Shown here: in pieces, positions 2,758-64,000 of the stretch
How positions within the stretch are numbered: the first letter of the stretch is position 1
Layout: each line of letters begins with the position of its first letter
Source of the DNA: Escherichia phage GADS24
Direction: 5' to 3' (one strand)
DNA: 64,000 nucleotides
Sequence record: OQ703618.1
Position numbers and translations under genes: made by a program
The notes under the pieces: generated by a model
Databases searched by the model: none
Seen by the model: the letters and a program-made list of their open reading frames with translations, nothing else
What the model was told of the DNA's origin: nothing

Positions 2758-3573
2758 TTAACAATTTACAGACCAAGTCCATTTGGACGAATCTAAAGGA
2801 AAGTTTTGAATCGTCCACCATGGCTGCATATTGGTTGGTCCTGGGGTTCGCCAGGTATACGGATTCGACGGAGTGCCAATTTGATTAGGCCATGCACCTG
2901 GACTTGTTGCACCAGATTCTTTAAGCAAATCCGCCAATCGTTTTAAAAGGTCTTCACGATCTGAATCTGAATTACGCTCTGGTGGAACCAAACGAGATTC
3001 AATATCATCCCATGTGTGTACGCGTTGTGCAGTACGAGGAATATCATCACGTTCACCACGAGCCAACCAATAAATCGGTACATTAAGAATTTCTGCTGCA
3101 TGGTCACAGTGATGAGCTAAATCGTCAACGTAACAAATCACGTTATATTTTGTTTTAGCTAGTTCGAATAATTGTTCCTTTGAAGAATCATGTCCACACA
3201 TCATTACTTCAGAAAAGGCGCCTGGGAACAAAGCATTCAAATTAAATTGTCTATTCAATCGAGCATCAATTGAATCACCTAGCGCCGTCACGGCTACAAA
3301 ATTATAGTCTTCTTTTAGTTTATTGATAACTCGAAGAGCATCCGAATAAGGCGCTAAGTAACGAATAAAATCAGAGCGATTATATTTTTCTATTAATTGT
3401 TTACCGAGGTTATCGTCGGTATTGAATAGTTTACCAGGAGAAATAAATTTTTCGTCCTGAATCATTTTTAAAATATGTTCTAATGGAAGATTATATTTTT
3501 GGGCAAAATAAGGAAGTCCAGATTGCCAGCTTAAACATACACCATCAATATCGGTCAAAATAGTAGGCTTCAT
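2758..3573 (-). CDS. HAD-superfamily hydrolase-like protein (30.2-like)
   Basis: N-terminal LTDIDGV motif (HAD motif I, DxDG); 271 aa; Trp-rich C-terminal tail. Confidence 0.55.
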   Translation of the reverse strand: MKPTILTDIDGVCLSWQSGLPYFAQKYNLPLEHILKMIQDEKFISPGKLFNTDDNLGKQLIEKYNRSDFIRYLAPYSDALRVINKLKEDYNFVAVTALGDSIDARLNRQFNLNALFPGAFSEVMMCGHDSSKEQLFELAKTKYNVICYVDDLAHHCDHAAEILNVPIYWLARGERDDIPRTAQRVHTWDDIESRLVPPERNSDSDREDLLKRLADLLKESGATSPGAWPNQIGTPSNPYTWRTPGPTNMQPWWTIQNFPLDSSKWTWSVNC

Positions 3574-4028
3574 AGAGAGTCTCTTAATAGGTTTAACACA
3601 TCAATAAATTCAGCTTCGGTTAGTATTGTATCATCTTTTGTTAGACCACTAGCCATGCTGTGCTTCAAAATTTTTCCTTTAGAGGCTTGTAATGCATCGC
3701 GAAAGCCCTTGTTTTGGATCGCTGCTTCAAAATATGCATTTGTATACAACTCTTTCCATGCTGCAGAGTATCTTGAAAAGGGAACTCCAATCCAGAAGAG
3801 GGTCCCACGGTCCTGAGCTCTAGCATAAGCTCGCCCAGCTTGTTGGGCGGCAAGCCCGGATAACCCAAATATACGTCTTTGTTGTTCAACATTTTTCACC
3901 TTACATCCTTGGAGAAATCCTTCAAGACCTCCGAATTGAATACCATCCATAACAAAAGGCCATTGGGCGAAATTACTTAATGCGCATGACGGCCATTTGA
4001 AATTGCTTCTTATTTCTAATTCACACAT
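3570..4028 (-). CDS. hypothetical protein (30.3-like)
   Basis: First ATG at 4026-4028 (track start at 4037 is GTG); overlaps next gene start. Confidence 0.5.
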   Translation of the reverse strand: MCELEIRSNFKWPSCALSNFAQWPFVMDGIQFGGLEGFLQGCKVKNVEQQRRIFGLSGLAAQQAGRAYARAQDRGTLFWIGVPFSRYSAAWKELYTNAYFEAAIQNKGFRDALQASKGKILKHSMASGLTKDDTILTEAEFIDVLNLLRDSL

Positions 4029-58099: not shown

Positions 58100-58297
58100 A
58101 TGTTTAAACTTCCGTCGTTAATCAACGCTATTAAAGGCAATAAAAAGAAAACTGCTATCGCTGCAATAGTTGTAGGTGGCATTATTTCATGGAACTTCGG
58201 GATTGCACCATTGTTAGTTGCTAATGGTATTATAGTTCCTTCTGTTCCATTGGATACTGTAGTTGATTTGGCCTTTGCTATTATAGGGCTTATTTAA
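58100..58297 (+). CDS. small membrane protein, 65 aa, divergent from gene 56
   Basis: ATG 58100 with AAGGAG RBS; two hydrophobic segments; near-consensus AATAAATA 20 nt upstream. Confidence 0.5.
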   Translation: MFKLPSLINAIKGNKKKTAIAAIVVGGIISWNFGIAPLLVANGIIVPSVPLDTVVDLAFAIIGLI

Positions 58298-59316
58298 ATC
58301 TTTGAATAACGAGATAATCTCATTTTAGCATGCAACCCACTTGAAATATTCTGTTTCATATATTCTAAAATTTCTTGTGGTGTTGCATTTTCTTTCATTA
58401 CCATATCATTCACGTCCTTTGATCTCCACGGAGCTCGGTCCCAGAACATGACACGTTCGCCTGCATCAACTAATCGCTTCATGCGAGCTATAGTGTCCGG
58501 ATGCCTAGGTTCATTATCCATTACCCATACCCGACGTTCTTTAAATGGTACCACATCTAAATCTATTGAGCCGCCTGTAATAGCGATTGCATTGGGTATG
58601 AATAAACTATCAATAGGGCCTTCCATTACCCAGACGTCTCCTTCCTTAACACGTTCAACACCATAAATTTTTGTTGCAGACTCAAACGCTTTAATAGTGA
58701 TATATTTCTGAGGAGCATCTTTACGAAGTGCACGTCCTTGGAATGACTCAGCCTTCCCATCTTTATTAAAAATAGGAATCACTAAACGTGGCTCGGGAAT
58801 CTCTTTCTTATACGTACCAGGTTGAATCTTGTTGACCAATTTAGGCCATTCTAATGTGAACCATAATCTGTTCCATGATTCTTTAGGAATACACCGAGAC
58901 TTAACATATTTCACAATAGGATGCTCTTCAGGCAGCTTGTCCAGACGAGAACAAGACGGCAAAGAATTTATAGTCTTTTTCTCCGGTTCTGGTTTATGTT
59001 CAGGAACCTTTTCAATCTTTGGTTCCATTCTAGCTTTTTCTTTACGAACTTCCATTAGATATTCGCGATAAAGCTCTTCATCATACTCTTTTAAGTATCC
59101 GGAAATTGTATTATGGTATTGACAATTATAGCAATGTACATTACCAGGAGTACCGCCATAATACCATCCGCGAGCTTTCATTGCATCTGTCTGGGAGTCG
59201 CCACAAACTGGACATCGAAATGTTAATTTAAATGTGCTTGAATTATTGATTTGTCTAAAACGAGGTAGGTGAGAAAACGCACGATAAGCAAATTCATTAT
59301 CTATCCATTCAGCCAT
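58294..59316 (-). CDS. 61: DNA primase gp61
   Basis: 340 aa; zinc-ribbon CPVCGDS...CYNC and TOPRIM region; matches T4 gp61. Confidence 0.95.
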   Translation of the reverse strand: MAEWIDNEFAYRAFSHLPRFRQINNSSTFKLTFRCPVCGDSQTDAMKARGWYYGGTPGNVHCYNCQYHNTISGYLKEYDEELYREYLMEVRKEKARMEPKIEKVPEHKPEPEKKTINSLPSCSRLDKLPEEHPIVKYVKSRCIPKESWNRLWFTLEWPKLVNKIQPGTYKKEIPEPRLVIPIFNKDGKAESFQGRALRKDAPQKYITIKAFESATKIYGVERVKEGDVWVMEGPIDSLFIPNAIAITGGSIDLDVVPFKERRVWVMDNEPRHPDTIARMKRLVDAGERVMFWDRAPWRSKDVNDMVMKENATPQEILEYMKQNISSGLHAKMRLSRYSKI

Positions 59317-59355: not shown

Positions 59356-59823
59356 TCACAACTTATTAATATTTACTTTAATTCGCTTTCTTTTCTTGGA
59401 AGGAATTTGTTCTGGACCTTTATTTACGACTGCACCTGTAGTTGTTCCTGATGCAATAGCTTGAGGACTACCGCCTGAATCACCAGCAACCATATCCTCA
59501 AATAAAGGGAGTTCTTTAAATATTTCTTTCTGTTGTTCTTCCGTAATGTTATAGCGTGAAGCTACAGCACTCCAGGCAGACATCATTGAGGCCATTCCAT
59601 TAAGACCTGGAACAGTGCTCATCATTCGCTTCATTGAACGAACTGAAGCATGAAAAGGTGTATACGCCGCTTTCTCTTCGGGAGTAGAAGGACGTTTAAG
59701 AACACTTCCACGTTCATCGATGATTTTGGCTTCGTATGCTTTCCATTCGGTAAAAGGTTTTTGCATTAGTCGAATAAACTTATATGCGTAAACAGAATCT
59801 ATTGCAGTGTTAATAATACCCAT
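59356..59823 (-). CDS. hypothetical protein (61.1-like), 155 aa
   Basis: ATG 59821-59823 with AGGAGGT RBS; track start is TTG. Confidence 0.5.
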   Translation of the reverse strand: MGIINTAIDSVYAYKFIRLMQKPFTEWKAYEAKIIDERGSVLKRPSTPEEKAAYTPFHASVRSMKRMMSTVPGLNGMASMMSAWSAVASRYNITEEQQKEIFKELPLFEDMVAGDSGGSPQAIASGTTTGAVVNKGPEQIPSKKRKRIKVNINKL

Positions 59824-59842
59824 AGGTACCTCCTGAGTATAT

Positions 59843-60040
59843 TTAATCAATTACAAAGATTGCTTTGTCACCATTTATATCTGTGACTTCATATGTAGTG
59901 CCTTCATACTGTGGAATATTCCAAATTACACCATCATTAGCTTTTACGCTAATATGGCATTGGTGTTTTGAAACAACTTCATAATCTTCAAAACTTGTAA
60001 AAACACTAATTTTAGAACCAGTGCAAATTGCAGTAGTCAT
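59843..60040 (-). CDS. hypothetical protein, 65 aa
   Basis: ATG 60038-60040 with GAGGT RBS. Confidence 0.45.
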   Translation of the reverse strand: MTTAICTGSKISVFTSFEDYEVVSKHQCHISVKANDGVIWNIPQYEGTTYEVTDINGDKAIFVID

Positions 60041-60041
60041 T

Positions 60042-60692
60042 TTAACCTCGATTCATAAATGCATTAAATATTTGGTCATCAACAGAAATTTCTAATTCGA
60101 CTTCAATTGTTTCAGCCTTTTCTTCAGGTGGTAATTCGTATCCACACACTACAATTTTTTCATCGATACCAAAATATACAGAAGCAATACGATTAATGTT
60201 ACTTTCAGTTAAGTCTAAATCAACATCAACATCTTTTTGACATACACTTAAAGGATAACTAATACGGGTTATTTTATTATCTTTAACAAAGAGTCCGCCA
60301 ACATACTCTGTACTACGTTTGAAGTTTACACGTTTCCGAATTGAAAGATATGATACATCTTTACCGTGAGCTCGGCTCATAGGACATAATGAATAGCTAG
60401 AATAAGAGATGTCAAATCCTACACCTTCAATATGAGCCAACGCGTCATGATTAAACCAATTATAATCATATGCCAAATCCATTATATTGTAATATGTGAA
60501 AGGCATCGGATTAACATCATACGTTGTACCTTTAAAATCTGCCCAGGCGACGATTTCGTTATCTTTAACAATTACAAAAATTACACCAATATGATATCCG
60601 TTATTATTTTCGTTAGGCGTTATATTATAACATTGTGCATTAGGAAATTTACCATATTTAAATGGCGCATTTTTGTGCATATAATAAATCAT
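60042..60692 (-). CDS. hypothetical protein (61.2-like), 216 aa
   Basis: ATG 60690-60692 one nt from upstream stop; track start is GTG. Confidence 0.5.
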   Translation of the reverse strand: MIYYMHKNAPFKYGKFPNAQCYNITPNENNNGYHIGVIFVIVKDNEIVAWADFKGTTYDVNPMPFTYYNIMDLAYDYNWFNHDALAHIEGVGFDISYSSYSLCPMSRAHGKDVSYLSIRKRVNFKRSTEYVGGLFVKDNKITRISYPLSVCQKDVDVDLDLTESNINRIASVYFGIDEKIVVCGYELPPEEKAETIEVELEISVDDQIFNAFMNRG

Positions 60693-60693
60693 A

Positions 60694-60987
60694 TTATTCA
60701 CCTGTGATTTCGGTTACGATATCTTTGTTATCGAAATTAGGGTCACAATACAAAACATAATTGTACTGCATGATACCGCCAGACTTAAGTTGTTCAACAA
60801 CTTTATTAACCATATTAGGACGGTCTCTTTTAGTGATGTTCATGATATCAGAGAAGATTTGTTGTTCAACATCTTCTTGATTTGCAGTCATTGACCACTC
60901 ACAGAGGTCTTTATCATAACCTGCCGTAACTGGAGCTGGTGCACATGATACTGCAAGTAAGATTGCTGCCAATGATAACTTTTTCAT
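60694..60987 (-). CDS. sp: secreted periplasmic protein, Spackle (Sp)-like by size, signal peptide and position
   Basis: 97 aa with N-terminal signal peptide MKKLSLAAILLAVSCAPAPVTA; AAGGAG RBS; T4 sp is a 97-aa periplasmic protein in the 61.x region. Confidence 0.45.
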   Translation of the reverse strand: MKKLSLAAILLAVSCAPAPVTAGYDKDLCEWSMTANQEDVEQQIFSDIMNITKRDRPNMVNKVVEQLKSGGIMQYNYVLYCDPNFDNKDIVTEITGE

Positions 60988-61016
60988 TTTAACTCCTTAG
61001 TTGATTTGATAGGACT

Positions 61017-61046
61017 ACTATACTATAGTCCATCTATAATGTAAAC
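61017..61046 (-). promoter_or_regulatory. T4-type early promoter (GTTTAC, 18 nt, TATAGT)
   Basis: Motif match. Confidence 0.45.
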
Positions 61047-61050
61047 AAGT

Positions 61051-61299
61051 TTATTCTTTTTCGCGAATAATAATTACTTGTTGAGGCTGCTGAGCAGATT
61101 TCTTTTCGGCAACGATAGACCAAATTAAAGTTCCAATCCAACCAACCATCGTCCAGTTAAAGAGTAAAGATACAAAGAAGATTGCTGTTGTGCTTTTTGT
61201 GCCACGAATAAGTGCGATTACCCAAGGCAACATGTAAATGATGATTGAACCAATACCTGCGATTAAAACCGCTACTGAACTAGCTACGAATAATTCCAT
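61051..61299 (-). CDS. small two-TM membrane protein, 82 aa
   Basis: ATG 61297-61299; two hydrophobic helices. Confidence 0.5.
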   Translation of the reverse strand: MELFVASSVAVLIAGIGSIIIYMLPWVIALIRGTKSTTAIFFVSLLFNWTMVGWIGTLIWSIVAEKKSAQQPQQVIIIREKE

Positions 61300-61327
61300 G
61301 TTAATTTCCTCTTGATTTGTTATGTTT

Positions 61328-61357
61328 ATAATATCTTATTTTAACTTTGGTGTAAAC
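61328..61357 (-). promoter_or_regulatory. T4-type early promoter (GTTTAC, 18 nt, TATTAT)
   Basis: Motif match. Confidence 0.45.
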
Positions 61358-61360
61358 CAA

Positions 61361-61729
61361 TTAGTTAAATTTGTTTAAACGTTCAATACACTGGACGTAG
61401 TTATTTGCGATTTGTTTCTGGGTAGGCTCTTTACCAGTTGTTTCAACATAGCGAATGAATGCGATTTCAGTAGCCTGTAGACAATGTTCTTTAACGCGTT
61501 GTTCTTTTGACATAGCTACAGTATCAGAATCACGATAACGTTGAGCATGTGCATCAGCTTGAATCATTCGATTACCTACAGTAACCGGGTCTTCCACTTC
61601 AACTTTAGGTTGGTCATACTGTTTAACATTTGGATTGTAAATCAGTTGGCCAACGTTATTAGGGATAAAGCCATGGGCACCACATCCGGTTAATCCAAAT
61701 ACCATTGCTAAAGCGATTAATTTTTTCAT
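61361..61729 (-). CDS. lipoprotein, 122 aa
   Basis: Signal peptide with lipobox LTGC; ATG 61727-61729. Confidence 0.55.
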   Translation of the reverse strand: MKKLIALAMVFGLTGCGAHGFIPNNVGQLIYNPNVKQYDQPKVEVEDPVTVGNRMIQADAHAQRYRDSDTVAMSKEQRVKEHCLQATEIAFIRYVETTGKEPTQKQIANNYVQCIERLNKFN

Positions 61730-61757
61730 TTCAATTTCCTCTGTGGTTGATAGAAAG

Positions 61758-61787
61758 ATAGTAACACAGTATGCGATGCTTGTAAAC
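61758..61787 (-). promoter_or_regulatory. T4-type early promoter (GTTTAC, 18 nt, TACTAT)
   Basis: Motif match. Confidence 0.45.
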
Positions 61788-61789
61788 AG

Positions 61790-62002
61790 CTATTTTAAAC
61801 TTTTGCGAAATTTGCGTTTTTCTTGACGAATCTGTCGTTTAGTCGGACGTACAGCAAATTTAACGAAGTCCACTTTGCCATGTGGAAACTTTTCAGATGC
61901 TTCACAGTCCATCATTAGTTCCCATCCTTCCAGAATAAGAGCTTTCCATTGTGTAGTTGATGCAAATTCGTATGTTGATGGTTTAAACACAGTTGAATAC
62001 AT
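61790..62002 (-). CDS. hypothetical basic protein, 70 aa
   Basis: ATG 62000-62002 with AGAGGA RBS, one nt from upstream stop; track start is TTG at 62047. Confidence 0.4.
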   Translation of the reverse strand: MYSTVFKPSTYEFASTTQWKALILEGWELMMDCEASEKFPHGKVDFVKFAVRPTKRQIRQEKRKFRKSLK

Positions 62003-62003
62003 A

Positions 62004-62195
62004 TTATCCTCTGAAATCAGCTTCAAAAACTTTCTCGTCATTAACAAATGCTTTAACTAATGCTTTGTTCACTTCAGCAAGTTGTACCGTAACCCACTCG
62101 ATTTCTTCGCGATCACCTGATAACATGATATCTTTAGTGAACATCTCACCACTTTTAAACCAACCAATAAAAGTAACTTTAGTTAATTTGCTCAT
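62004..62195 (-). CDS. Dmd-like small protein (tentative), 63 aa
   Basis: ATG 62193-62195 with GAGGAAAT RBS and ATGA overlap with upstream stop; small 61.x-region protein; assignment is by weak recollection of T4 Dmd, not verified. Confidence 0.3.
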   Translation of the reverse strand: MSKLTKVTFIGWFKSGEMFTKDIMLSGDREEIEWVTVQLAEVNKALVKAFVNDEKVFEADFRG

Positions 62196-62509
62196 ATTTC
62201 CTCGCAAAATGCCCATTCAGCGTGATAAACTGTAGCACCTTTAGTATTATTCATTTGAACTACGTCTACCGGAGAAATTACTCGATAGAGACGTGGTTCA
62301 CCTCCATAAGAGCGTGCTGCTCGTCCTGCATAAATCTTTGCTAAACCAATATCTTCAGTAAAGAATACACGATCCAGGTTTTTCTTACGTCCAGTTTCAG
62401 ACAGAACTCCTGTTTCCTCAGGAGGACAAAGCATGTTTTCGATGTTAGCTGAACTACTTGAACCGTGATAAAAAATCTTAAATTCTGCTTTACAATCGAT
62501 GGTTTTCAT
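62192..62509 (-). CDS. hypothetical protein, 105 aa
   Basis: Track ORF; early promoter upstream. Confidence 0.5.
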   Translation of the reverse strand: MKTIDCKAEFKIFYHGSSSSANIENMLCPPEETGVLSETGRKKNLDRVFFTEDIGLAKIYAGRAARSYGGEPRLYRVISPVDVVQMNNTKGATVYHAEWAFCEEI

Positions 62510-62535
62510 TTTGTTCTCCAGTAGTTGATAAGTCT

Positions 62536-62564
62536 ATAATAACACAACTACTGGAGAAGTAAAC
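62536..62564 (-). promoter_or_regulatory. T4-type early promoter (GTTTAC, 17 nt, TATTAT)
   Basis: Motif match. Confidence 0.5.
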
Positions 62565-62939
62565 TTAAAAACGTAATTTAGATACATCTACGTTGATTTC
62601 GCTTTGGTTTGCGTCGTATGCAATTAAACGAACCGCTTTAGATGGGTCATTCAATGCATAGAAATGATGGAACATTGCTCGAACGATATCACCATTTACG
62701 AGTTCTACCTGGATAGGAGAACCTTTTTCGAGTTGGAAATGTTCATAAGCTTTGATGGTTCGCAGATAATCAAGTTTTTGATTTCCGGCTCCAACAATTT
62801 GTACGATACGTTTGCCCATGTTTTCCATACGAGATACAATAGTTTTAGGAGCAAGAATAACGTAGGTTGCCAGTGGAGAAACTACTTCAACAGTTGTGTT
62901 TTCGGTGATTGCAGTAAAAATTGCTTGAGACATATTCAT
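62565..62939 (-). CDS. hypothetical protein, 124 aa
   Basis: Track ORF. Confidence 0.5.
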   Translation of the reverse strand: MNMSQAIFTAITENTTVEVVSPLATYVILAPKTIVSRMENMGKRIVQIVGAGNQKLDYLRTIKAYEHFQLEKGSPIQVELVNGDIVRAMFHHFYALNDPSKAVRLIAYDANQSEINVDVSKLRF

Positions 62940-62968: not shown

Positions 62969-62998
62969 ATCATATCATGCCTAGAGGAAGATGTAAAC
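62969..62998 (-). promoter_or_regulatory. T4-type early promoter (GTTTAC, 17 nt, TATGAT)
   Basis: Motif match. Confidence 0.4.
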
Positions 62999-63005
62999 CC
63001 CGAAA

Positions 63006-63021
63006 GGAGACCGAAGTCTCC
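63006..63021 (-). other. GGAGAC-CGAA-GUCUCC hairpin after gene 41 stop (T-tract on plus side, weak U-tract on minus side)
   Basis: Perfect inverted repeat; orientation of termination ambiguous. Confidence 0.4.
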
Positions 63022-63027
63022 TTTTTA

Positions 63028-64000
63028 TTAAAATTTTAACTCATTGGCTAAGCTATCTAGGTCAGCACGTGTTGTTTTGGCTTTACCTACGCGTTCCGTA
63101 CGATTCACCTCTGCCTGACGCATCTGAGCACCTGCGTTTTCATTTACTGTGTTAGGTGTGTTCATGCCTTCTTGCTCAATCTCAATCCATTTCTGGTTGC
63201 CTTTACGTACACCCATCAGGAATTTATTCCACTTATTCTTATCACCGTATCGTGATTTGATTTGTTTGATAAGTTGTTGTTCAGCTTGTGCAAGTTCTTC
63301 TGTTTCAATTACGGCCAACATGAAATCTGCCGTTGCTGGTAAACCTGCTGATTCTGCAATATCACTCATGTTCATATCCGAAGCATCCCATGCTGCACGT
63401 CCTACTTGAGCTGCAGTCCATAGAACTGTTTCAGATTCTACTGCTAATGCACGAAGTTCTTCTGCGATAGCTTTAACTAATGTGTAGCTATTTTCAGTGT
63501 AAACTCTGATACGACAAGACCCACAAATACCTAAGTAATCAACCATGATTACAGATGGCACAAAGTTCTTCTTGAGTTTCAATTCATTAAGCAATGCACG
63601 GAATGTATTAGCATTAGCTCCACCAGTAGGATACTGTTTAACTACTAAACGTCCTAATGTTGTTTTTGAACGCCATTTTTCCATCTTAGCTTTATATTCA
63701 GCATAAGATACGTTACCATCATCGATATCATCGAGTGATACGTCAAGCATGTTTGCATCTATACGCTTAGCGCAAACTTCTTCGGCCATTTCCATGGAAA
63801 TATAAAGAACATTATGACCTGTTTGAAGATAATCTGCAGCAAGTGAACAAAGGCCTAAAGATTTACCGACGTTAACACCAGCCATTAAAACGTTTAGTGT
63901 ACCTGTTTCTGCACCGCCTTTGGTGATTTTATTCAAAATGTTTAATTTGAACGGGACCTTACGTGCTTTATTTAGATAAGAAAGCCAGCGTGCTTCGTAG
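63028..64000 (-). CDS. 41: replicative DNA helicase gp41 (DnaB-like), C-terminal part; gene continues beyond window end
   Basis: Translation matches T4 gp41 C-terminal two-thirds (GVNVGKSLGLCSLAADYLQ.GHNVLYISMEMAEEV...); frame stays open upstream of the track's TTG start to position 64000. Confidence 0.93.
   Translation of the reverse strand, partial: YEARWLSYLNKARKVPFKLNILNKITKGGAETGTLNVLMAGVNVGKSLGLCSLAADYLQTGHNVLYISMEMAEEVCAKRIDANMLDVSLDDIDDGNVSYAEYKAKMEKWRSKTTLGRLVVKQYPTGGANANTFRALLNELKLKKNFVPSVIMVDYLGICGSCRIRVYTENSYTLVKAIAEELRALAVESETVLWTAAQVGRAAWDASDMNMSDIAESAGLPATADFMLAVIETEELAQAEQQLIKQIKSRYGDKNKWNKFLMGVRKGNQKWIEIEQEGMNTPNTVNENAGAQMRQAEVNRTERVGKAKTTRADLDSLANELKF

Follow-up and report, generated by a model that had tools for sequence, protein, structure and literature searches.

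The RB69-like segment between genes 61 and 41 of Escherichia phage GADS24: ten genes, including known counter-defence and superinfection-exclusion genes

Gene content and transcription units of the 61-41 island

We analysed the segment between gene 61 (primase) and gene 41 (replicative helicase) of Escherichia phage GADS24, located at 59356-62939 in a stretch of 64,000 nucleotides from record OQ703618.1 (hereafter the window), which an initial annotation made from the letters alone had described as an expanded island of small secreted, membrane and overlapping open reading frames (ORFs) and as a candidate superinfection-exclusion or anti-defence cluster. According to the ORF listing of the window, the island is filled by ten consecutive minus-strand ORFs arranged head to tail, with gene 61 on one side and gene 41 on the other (Table 1). 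A Shine-Dalgarno sequence lies ahead of each of the ten genes, and PHROGs or Pfam homologues were found for all of them (10/10), which bears out the ten small ORFs predicted between the primase and helicase genes. The ORFs themselves were kept, the start of gp61.1 was corrected from 59850 to 59823, and that of AdfA was placed at 60692.

The out-of-frame overlapping pair of ORFs described in the initial annotation disappeared on inspection. The longer starts, TTG at 62047 and ATG at 62216, arise from the longest-ORF rule: the 85-amino-acid (aa) version of tifA and the 70-aa version of dmd are products of an ORF lister that accepts the earliest start codon available. In alignment, M1 of T4 TifA falls on the ATG at 62002, where the PHROG TifA profile begins too, and T4 Dmd as well as the Pfam and PHROG profiles of Dmd begin at the ATG at 62195. 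Overlapping tifA and dmd genes were therefore rejected; the two genes are adjacent with a 1-nt gap, and the sole real overlap in the island is that of ORF040c and dmd (4 nt, ATGA). The overlapping long versions produced by the mechanical listing could also be taken to mean that the ten ORFs include chance frames and that the region conceals true alternative-frame overlapping genes, which we regard as so improbable as to be negligible, since each of the ten ORFs has conserved homologues whose length matches its own, the profiles and T4 orthologues start at the internal ATGs, and the annotations of RB69 and HX01 agree on the genes.

The whole window was searched for the T4-type early-promoter motif GTTTAC-N(14-19)-TAnnnT, and 27 copies were obtained against 6.3 expected by chance, nearly always on the minus strand. 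Five of these promoters are located in the intergenic gaps of the island, where they serve the ten genes and are predicted to define five transcription units: three with a single gene (ORF041c, imm.1 and imm) and two operons (ORF040c-dmd-tifA and sp-adfA-ORF033c-61.1). All five would fire right after infection. Early promoters are thus present as had been claimed, but the statement that most of the genes possess private ones was too generous, given five promoters for ten genes and three single-gene units. Many early promoters on the minus strand of the window also have pyrimidine-rich CUCC/UUCC spacer tracts right after GTTTAC, which could pair with downstream Shine-Dalgarno sequences.

One of the five promoters, P2 ahead of ORF040c, is enclosed by a strong hairpin, the stem of which is perfect over 14 bp (dG -25 kcal/mol, z -5.3; none of 200 shuffled sequences folds as well). 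The -10 element lies in the loop and the Shine-Dalgarno sequence (ribosome-binding site) of ORF040c in the 3' arm, and a weaker CUCC/GGAG form of this hairpin occurs in related loci and genera. We infer that read-through transcripts would hide the ribosome-binding site of ORF040c and that transcripts from its own promoter would expose it; ORF040c may consequently be translated only from own-promoter transcripts, because read-through RNA folds the site into the hairpin. No comparable hairpin was found at the other four promoters, where structures were weak or folded no better than shuffled versions of the sequence, and an Rfam scan at permissive thresholds gave chance-level matches only. The hairpin just past the gene 41 stop is a 9-bp perfect inverted repeat (dG -12.8 kcal/mol, z -2.5).

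By megablast, a 3.7-kb stretch covering the island was 98.0% identical to phage RB69 with 100% query coverage, and 155 phage records, almost all Mosigvirus, matched it with at least 95% identity. This identity and the matching annotations indicate that GADS24 is an RB69-like T4-type phage and that the region is already annotated in public records. The ten genes have the same order in RB69 (NC_004928, 17317-20898, from 61.1 to ORF041c), with 75 differences in 3.7 kb, and the same ten are listed in the annotations of RB69 and HX01. The genes most diverged from RB69 were adfA and imm.1 (about 3%). Relative to the window and HX01, the RB69 reference lacks one nucleotide at window position 59671 (L001 1557-2023), because of which RB69 61.1 is annotated as two coding sequences (RB69p031 and RB69p032), while the window gene is intact; the deletion is either a frameshift of the reference or a sequencing error.

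In T4, the same interval between genes 41 and 61 contains only 61.1, 61.2/adfA, sp, 61.4/tifA and dmd, whose proteins share 57-66% identity with those of the window, and hence the earlier impression of more ORFs than in T4 was correct (10 genes versus 5). The five extra genes are the imm.1-imm pair, ORF041c, ORF040c and ORF033c; in T4, imm and imm.1 sit between genes 42 and 43. The shared genes differ as well: 61.1 is about three-fold longer in the window (155 aa versus 54 aa), TifA of the window is without the C-terminal extension of T4 TifA, and residue 164 of AdfA is R in the window and H in T4. Further, dmd-tifA of T4 form one operon behind an early promoter, whereas in the window ORF040c stands between the promoter and dmd. 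Relative to T4, the imm.1-imm pair would thus have moved to this locus, the lineage-variable ORF041c, ORF040c and ORF033c would have been added, and the long form of 61.1 would have been kept.

Table 1. Features of the island between genes 41 and 61 of phage GADS24 and of its flanks, in window coordinates
Feature	Coordinates	Strand	Basis
Gene 41, 3' part (replicative helicase), upstream flank, continues past window end	63028..64000	-	ORF; RB69 annotation
UUCG-loop hairpin just past gene 41 stop, terminator or stabiliser type	63003..63024	-	inverted repeat, folding
Early promoter P1 (GTTTACA…TATGAT), before ORF041c	62969..62998	-	motif search
ORF041c, 124 aa, lineage-restricted protein	62565..62939	-	phrog_10668
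Early promoter P2, before ORF040c, inside hairpin	62536..62564	-	motif search
Strong hairpin around P2, arms 62509-62527 and 62545-62563	62509..62564	-	folding
ORF040c, 105 aa, predicted minimal Arr-like ADP-ribosyltransferase	62192..62509	-	fold, profile links
dmd, 63 aa, antitoxin versus RnlA and LsoA RNase toxins	62004..62195	-	PF17587, T4 Dmd, PDB 5i8j
tifA (61.4), 70 aa, ToxN inhibitor	61790..62002	-	DUF7279, T4 TifA
Early promoter P3, before imm.1	61758..61787	-	motif search
imm.1, 122-aa lipoprotein	61361..61729	-	DUF5481, T4 Imm.1, RB69 annotation
Early promoter P4, before imm	61328..61357	-	motif search
imm, 82-aa inner-membrane superinfection immunity protein	61051..61299	-	PF14373, T4 Imm
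Early promoter P5, before sp-adfA-ORF033c-61.1	61017..61046	-	motif search
sp (spackle), 97-aa periplasmic superinfection-exclusion protein	60694..60987	-	PF25676, T4 Sp, PDB 6x6o
adfA (61.2), 216 aa, anti-DarT factor A	60042..60692	-	PF23813, T4 gp61.2
ORF033c, 65 aa	59843..60040	-	phrog_3249
61.1, 155 aa: helical N-terminal domain, then gp23-like C-terminal segment	59356..59823	-	phrog_2086, profile versus gp23
Gene 61 (primase), downstream flank	58294..59316	-	ORF; RB69 annotation

Counter-defence and superinfection-exclusion genes of the island

Five genes of the island, dmd, tifA, adfA, sp and imm, are textbook or recently published counter-defence or exclusion genes. Dmd matched PF17587 with 77.6 bits (27-bit cut-off; profile positions 3-60 of 60), shared 58% identity with T4 Dmd and matched PDB 5i8j (E 3e-37); it would bind and block the RNase toxins RnlA and LsoA, a function established in T4 or RB69. 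TifA matched DUF7279 with 71.6 bits (cut-off 24.5) and shared 57% identity with T4 TifA over 70 aa, from its M1; the gene differs from RB69 tifA by 1 nt, and the central basic-residue cluster RPTKRQIRQEKRKFRK is present in an architecture as described previously (PMC9391042). Gene 61.4 was renamed tifA by Srikant et al. 2022 (PMC9391042), who reported that TifA of T2, T4, T6 and RB69 inhibits ToxN and that RB69 TifA is possibly the most potent. Its binding of ToxN plus RNA, likewise established in T4 or RB69, would block the ToxIN system.

Sp matched the full-length PF25676 profile with 145 bits, T4 Sp with 66% identity including the leader, and PDB 6x6o (E 1e-39), and has a signal peptide by prediction, whereas Imm matched PF14373 with 56.9 bits versus 27.9, shared 64% identity with T4 Imm end to end and possesses two hydrophobic segments. 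From functions established in T4 or RB69, periplasmic Sp would inhibit the tail lysozyme gp5 of a superinfecting phage, and Imm in the inner membrane would stop the entry of its DNA. Imm.1 has a lipobox (LTG|C), a DUF5481 match and 32% identity to T4 Imm.1. The Spackle-like signal-peptide protein, the two-transmembrane protein, the lipoprotein and the Dmd-like candidate of the initial annotation therefore correspond to Sp, Imm, Imm.1 and Dmd, respectively, and in the profile comparison the Dmd, Sp, AdfA and TifA families, plus Imm, were all recovered well above the curated Pfam thresholds.

AdfA matched PF23813 with 391 bits versus 27 (profile positions 1-211 of 211) and T4 gp61.2 with 64% identity. 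AdfA was discovered in RB69, where the wild-type protein with R164 does not bind DarT1 and the R164H protein, carrying the DarT1-neutralising change, does (PMC11257639). In the window, residue 164 (RB69 numbering) is Arg, and the neutralising His164 is present in T4 gp61.2; AdfA binding to DarT would be allele-specific, and the R164 allele of the window would not neutralise DarT1. The window also encodes gp30.3/AdfN, an anti-DarT NADAR enzyme (3570-4028, minus strand), at full length and with 95% identity to T4 AdfN through the last residue, and a truncating frameshift has been reported in adfN/gp30.3 of the RB69 reference (PMC11257639). With a full-length AdfN, we infer that GADS24 should resist DarTG1 despite the R164 allele of AdfA.

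Published work on T4 and RB69 showed that proteins of this type act against RnlA/LsoA, ToxN and DarT (PMC9391042, PMC11257639), and together with the matches of Dmd, TifA, AdfA, Sp and Imm it supports the proposed superinfection-exclusion and anti-defence cluster; the ORFs did not all turn out to be orthologues with known non-defence functions. We conclude that, very probably, the island is the form which the hypervariable accessory segment flanked by genes 41 and 61 takes in RB69 and Mosigvirus, and that it carries early-expressed host-conflict genes. This interpretation is supported but not new, because Srikant et al. 2022 had already named the locus: dmd, tifA and adfA were proposed to form a possible 'anti-TA island' (TA, toxin-antitoxin), and the other genes were called 'attractive anti-toxin candidates' (PMC9391042). 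The island is thus already known, published and named.

Several points weigh against this interpretation. ORF041c, ORF033c and Imm.1 bring no functional evidence at all; AdfA of the window, judged from its residue 164, carries the allele reported inactive against DarT1; the activity and target of ORF040c are hypothetical, and ORF040c itself falls below every Pfam, NCBIfam and PDB sequence threshold; and gp61.1 is nearly universal in the family and may be unrelated to defence. No observation speaks against the identification of the island as such. Among 5.8 billion sequences, ORF041c is represented by only 2 protein clusters, and it occurs in 134 phage records, nearly all Mosigvirus; it had no match in Pfam, NCBIfam or PADLOC, and the PDB gave weak, chance-level matches only. 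ORF033c is present in Mosigvirus and Dhakavirus loci and had no match in Pfam or PDB. PADLOC and NCBIfam gave no match for any of the ten island proteins.

The gene content also varied among related loci. In Dhakavirus-like loci, two tandem Dmd paralogues follow the gene of the predicted ADP-ribosyltransferase in L006 (2819-3217, 3359-4607), with a weak second match in L015, and two TifA-like paralogues exist in most of them (L006, L009-L015), while the Mosigvirus contigs L007 and L008 are without tifA. These gained paralogues and the missing tifA indicate that the island evolves via duplication and loss. Beyond the far end of gene 61, the sole plus-strand gene hereabouts is RB69ORF029w (58100-58297), a hydrophobic ORF of 65 aa that converges on gene 61 with a 4-nt overlap of their 3' ends.

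ORF040c, a predicted ADP-ribosyltransferase

ORF040c is not present at the T4 locus, and its family occurs in 609 phage records with 60-98% identity across phages of Escherichia, Klebsiella, Acinetobacter, Aeromonas and Vibrio. Searches against PDB sequences with the single sequence and with the profile gave no match, and fold comparison alone succeeded: the model is confident, its structural matches are all ADP-ribosyltransferases (ARTs), including diphtheria-toxin-like, PARP and DarT enzymes, and the predicted structure has the beta-sandwich fold of ARTs. The closest known systems are Arr (rifampin ADP-ribosyltransferase, PF12120) and AcrIF11. ORF040c itself did not match Arr-ms (PF12120) at E up to 0.1; its profile retrieved 222 cluster representatives, and family members found by this profile (E 1e-24 to 1e-27) matched Arr-ms over the same residues with 26.9-31.5 bits, above the 25-bit cut-off, as did the L065 protein (25.5 bits). 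A relative of ORF040c aligned to Arr shares the motifs H-G-T, E-x-G-R and T-x-D. The invariant residues of ORF040c include H15, G16, E38, G40, R41, K43, N44, T51, D53, Y60, R63 and E103; H15-G16-S17 is invariant and aligned to Arr H19, and E103, invariant in the subfamily, is at most a candidate equivalent of the Arr catalytic residue. Compared with Arr and AcrIF11, ORF040c is shorter, lies under the Arr-ms threshold and possesses an invariant basic loop of its own (SE-GRKKNL).

Relatives of ORF040c occur within longer proteins, the largest of about 3,900 aa, joined to ART-PolyVal, NUDIX, lambda-type portal plus 2H phosphoesterase, or Toprim domains, and we read such fusions as a probable signature of conflict effectors, some possibly virion-delivered. 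Large multi-domain carriers of an ART of this type were observed in L064 (3455-6007), L065 (2447-4303), P0253, P0278 and P0280, and several YHG[ST]/YHA-type motifs, seen by eye in a single protein of 850 aa, could be extra ART-like modules.

From these features, ORF040c would act as an NAD+-dependent ADP-ribosyltransferase of the Arr-like branch and would modify a host macromolecule (protein or RNA) for takeover or counter-defence. A stand-alone host-directed ART is the mechanism we favour, although tentatively and somewhat short of an even chance. Only the 2022 computational prediction of Iyer, Burroughs, Anantharaman and Aravind was found in the literature on ORF040c. These authors predicted a pairing of a 'p0068-family' ART with Dmd in Escherichia/Shigella/Salmonella phages and of a Mod-like ART with Dmd in Klebsiella phages (PMC9503650), so that ORF040c and Dmd might form a phage-borne type II toxin-antitoxin pair in which Dmd chiefly restrains the phage's own ART. 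In the window the two genes indeed share an operon and are translationally coupled via the ATGA overlap, and in Dhakavirus one or two Dmd paralogues come after the ART. However, Dmd was directly downstream in only 10 of the 62 ART loci from IMG/VR, all Mosigvirus- or Dhakavirus-like, and in the remaining 52 no Dmd was present within 4 kb; elsewhere the downstream neighbour of the ART is a two-transmembrane peptide of 55-60 aa, a lipoprotein, an unrelated ORF, or nothing. Moreover, T4 carries Dmd without the ART, and T4 Dmd has a demonstrated host target; that 'p0068' is the ORF040c family is itself only probable, being drawn from gene context. An obligate toxin-antitoxin relation is therefore unlikely, and the obligate ART-Dmd module was rejected, since co-occurrence is not conserved.

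Less likely still is a Tpt1/KptA-type RNA repair function, by which ORF040c would remove 2'-phosphates after damage by the RNase toxins that Dmd and TifA oppose. In its favour, 2H phosphoesterase and NUDIX domains, which accompany KptA chemistry (PMC9503650), occur in fusion with relatives of ORF040c, and the Slopekvirus ART gene lies near rnlB, but the sequence-level link runs to Arr-ms and not to KptA, and ORF040c corresponds to the NAD+-binding lobe only, with 75 residues aligned to the 179-aa Tpt1. The RNA-binding N-lobe of Tpt1 with its catalytic Arg-His-Arg-Arg tetrad would presumably be missing, because 105 aa leave no room for a second lobe. Tpt1 membership was rejected on the two-lobe architecture, for which ORF040c is too small.

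gp61.1, its likeness to gp23, and the significance of the island

gp61.1 is a near-universal Straboviridae gene and not an accessory one: it was found in 1473 phage records of this family, in 588 of them in the long form. T4-type phages retain only the C-terminal ~45 residues, and the 54 aa of T4 gp61.1 are essentially the gp23-like segment. About 48 C-terminal residues of gp61.1 (~102-149) share homology with the major capsid protein gp23 over its residues 54-103 (gp61.1 profile against PDB gp23, E 3.7e-7; hhalign of gp61.1 against RB69 gp23, probability 96.6%, E 6e-10; T4 gp61.1 against gp23, 46% identity over 37 aa). The matched stretch spans the maturation cleavage site plus the first ~35 residues of mature gp23, and the alignment sets L-F-E109|D-M-V-A-G-D of gp61.1 on L-T-E|A-E-I-G-G-D of gp23. 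We take the aligned gp23 position to be the cut site of the prohead protease gp21 (consensus Leu/Ile-x-Glu). The C-terminus of gp61.1 and gp23 thus have in common the Leu/Ile-x-Glu position at which gp23 is cut in maturation, and the hydrophobic-x-Glu pattern is retained across the gp61.1 family. Unlike gp23, gp61.1 is without the HK97-fold body, is encoded in an early operon beside the primase gene, and has a basic tail at its end. The AF2 model of gp61.1 was poor and fold comparison of that model gave no match; no literature on the similarity of gp61.1 and gp23 was found.

As a gp23 mimic, gp61.1 could be a decoy for capsid-sensing host systems such as CmdTAC, or a competitor or substrate of the prohead protease. 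The decoy role is conceivable, because the capsid protein Gp23 has been reported to trigger CmdTAC (PMC11618068), and purely speculative. Taken together, we give only a small chance to the proposal that ORF040c is an enzymatic counter-defence or takeover effector (perhaps with an RNase toxin or RNA as its target) and that gp61.1 is an early mimic of the N-terminal segment of gp23.

Overall, the finding adds little, since it is the re-discovery of a published locus. Its practical value is a map that places five validated counter-defence or exclusion genes beside five unstudied neighbours in RB69-like phages, and the residual interest concerns ORF040c and gp61.1: the former is a very small, very conserved predicted ADP-ribosyltransferase in 609 phage records, the latter a small, near-universal protein with a copy of the gp23 region around the maturation site, and for both a testable hypothesis is now concrete. 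If true, ORF040c and gp61.1 would stand for mechanisms that T4-like phages have not so far been shown to use.

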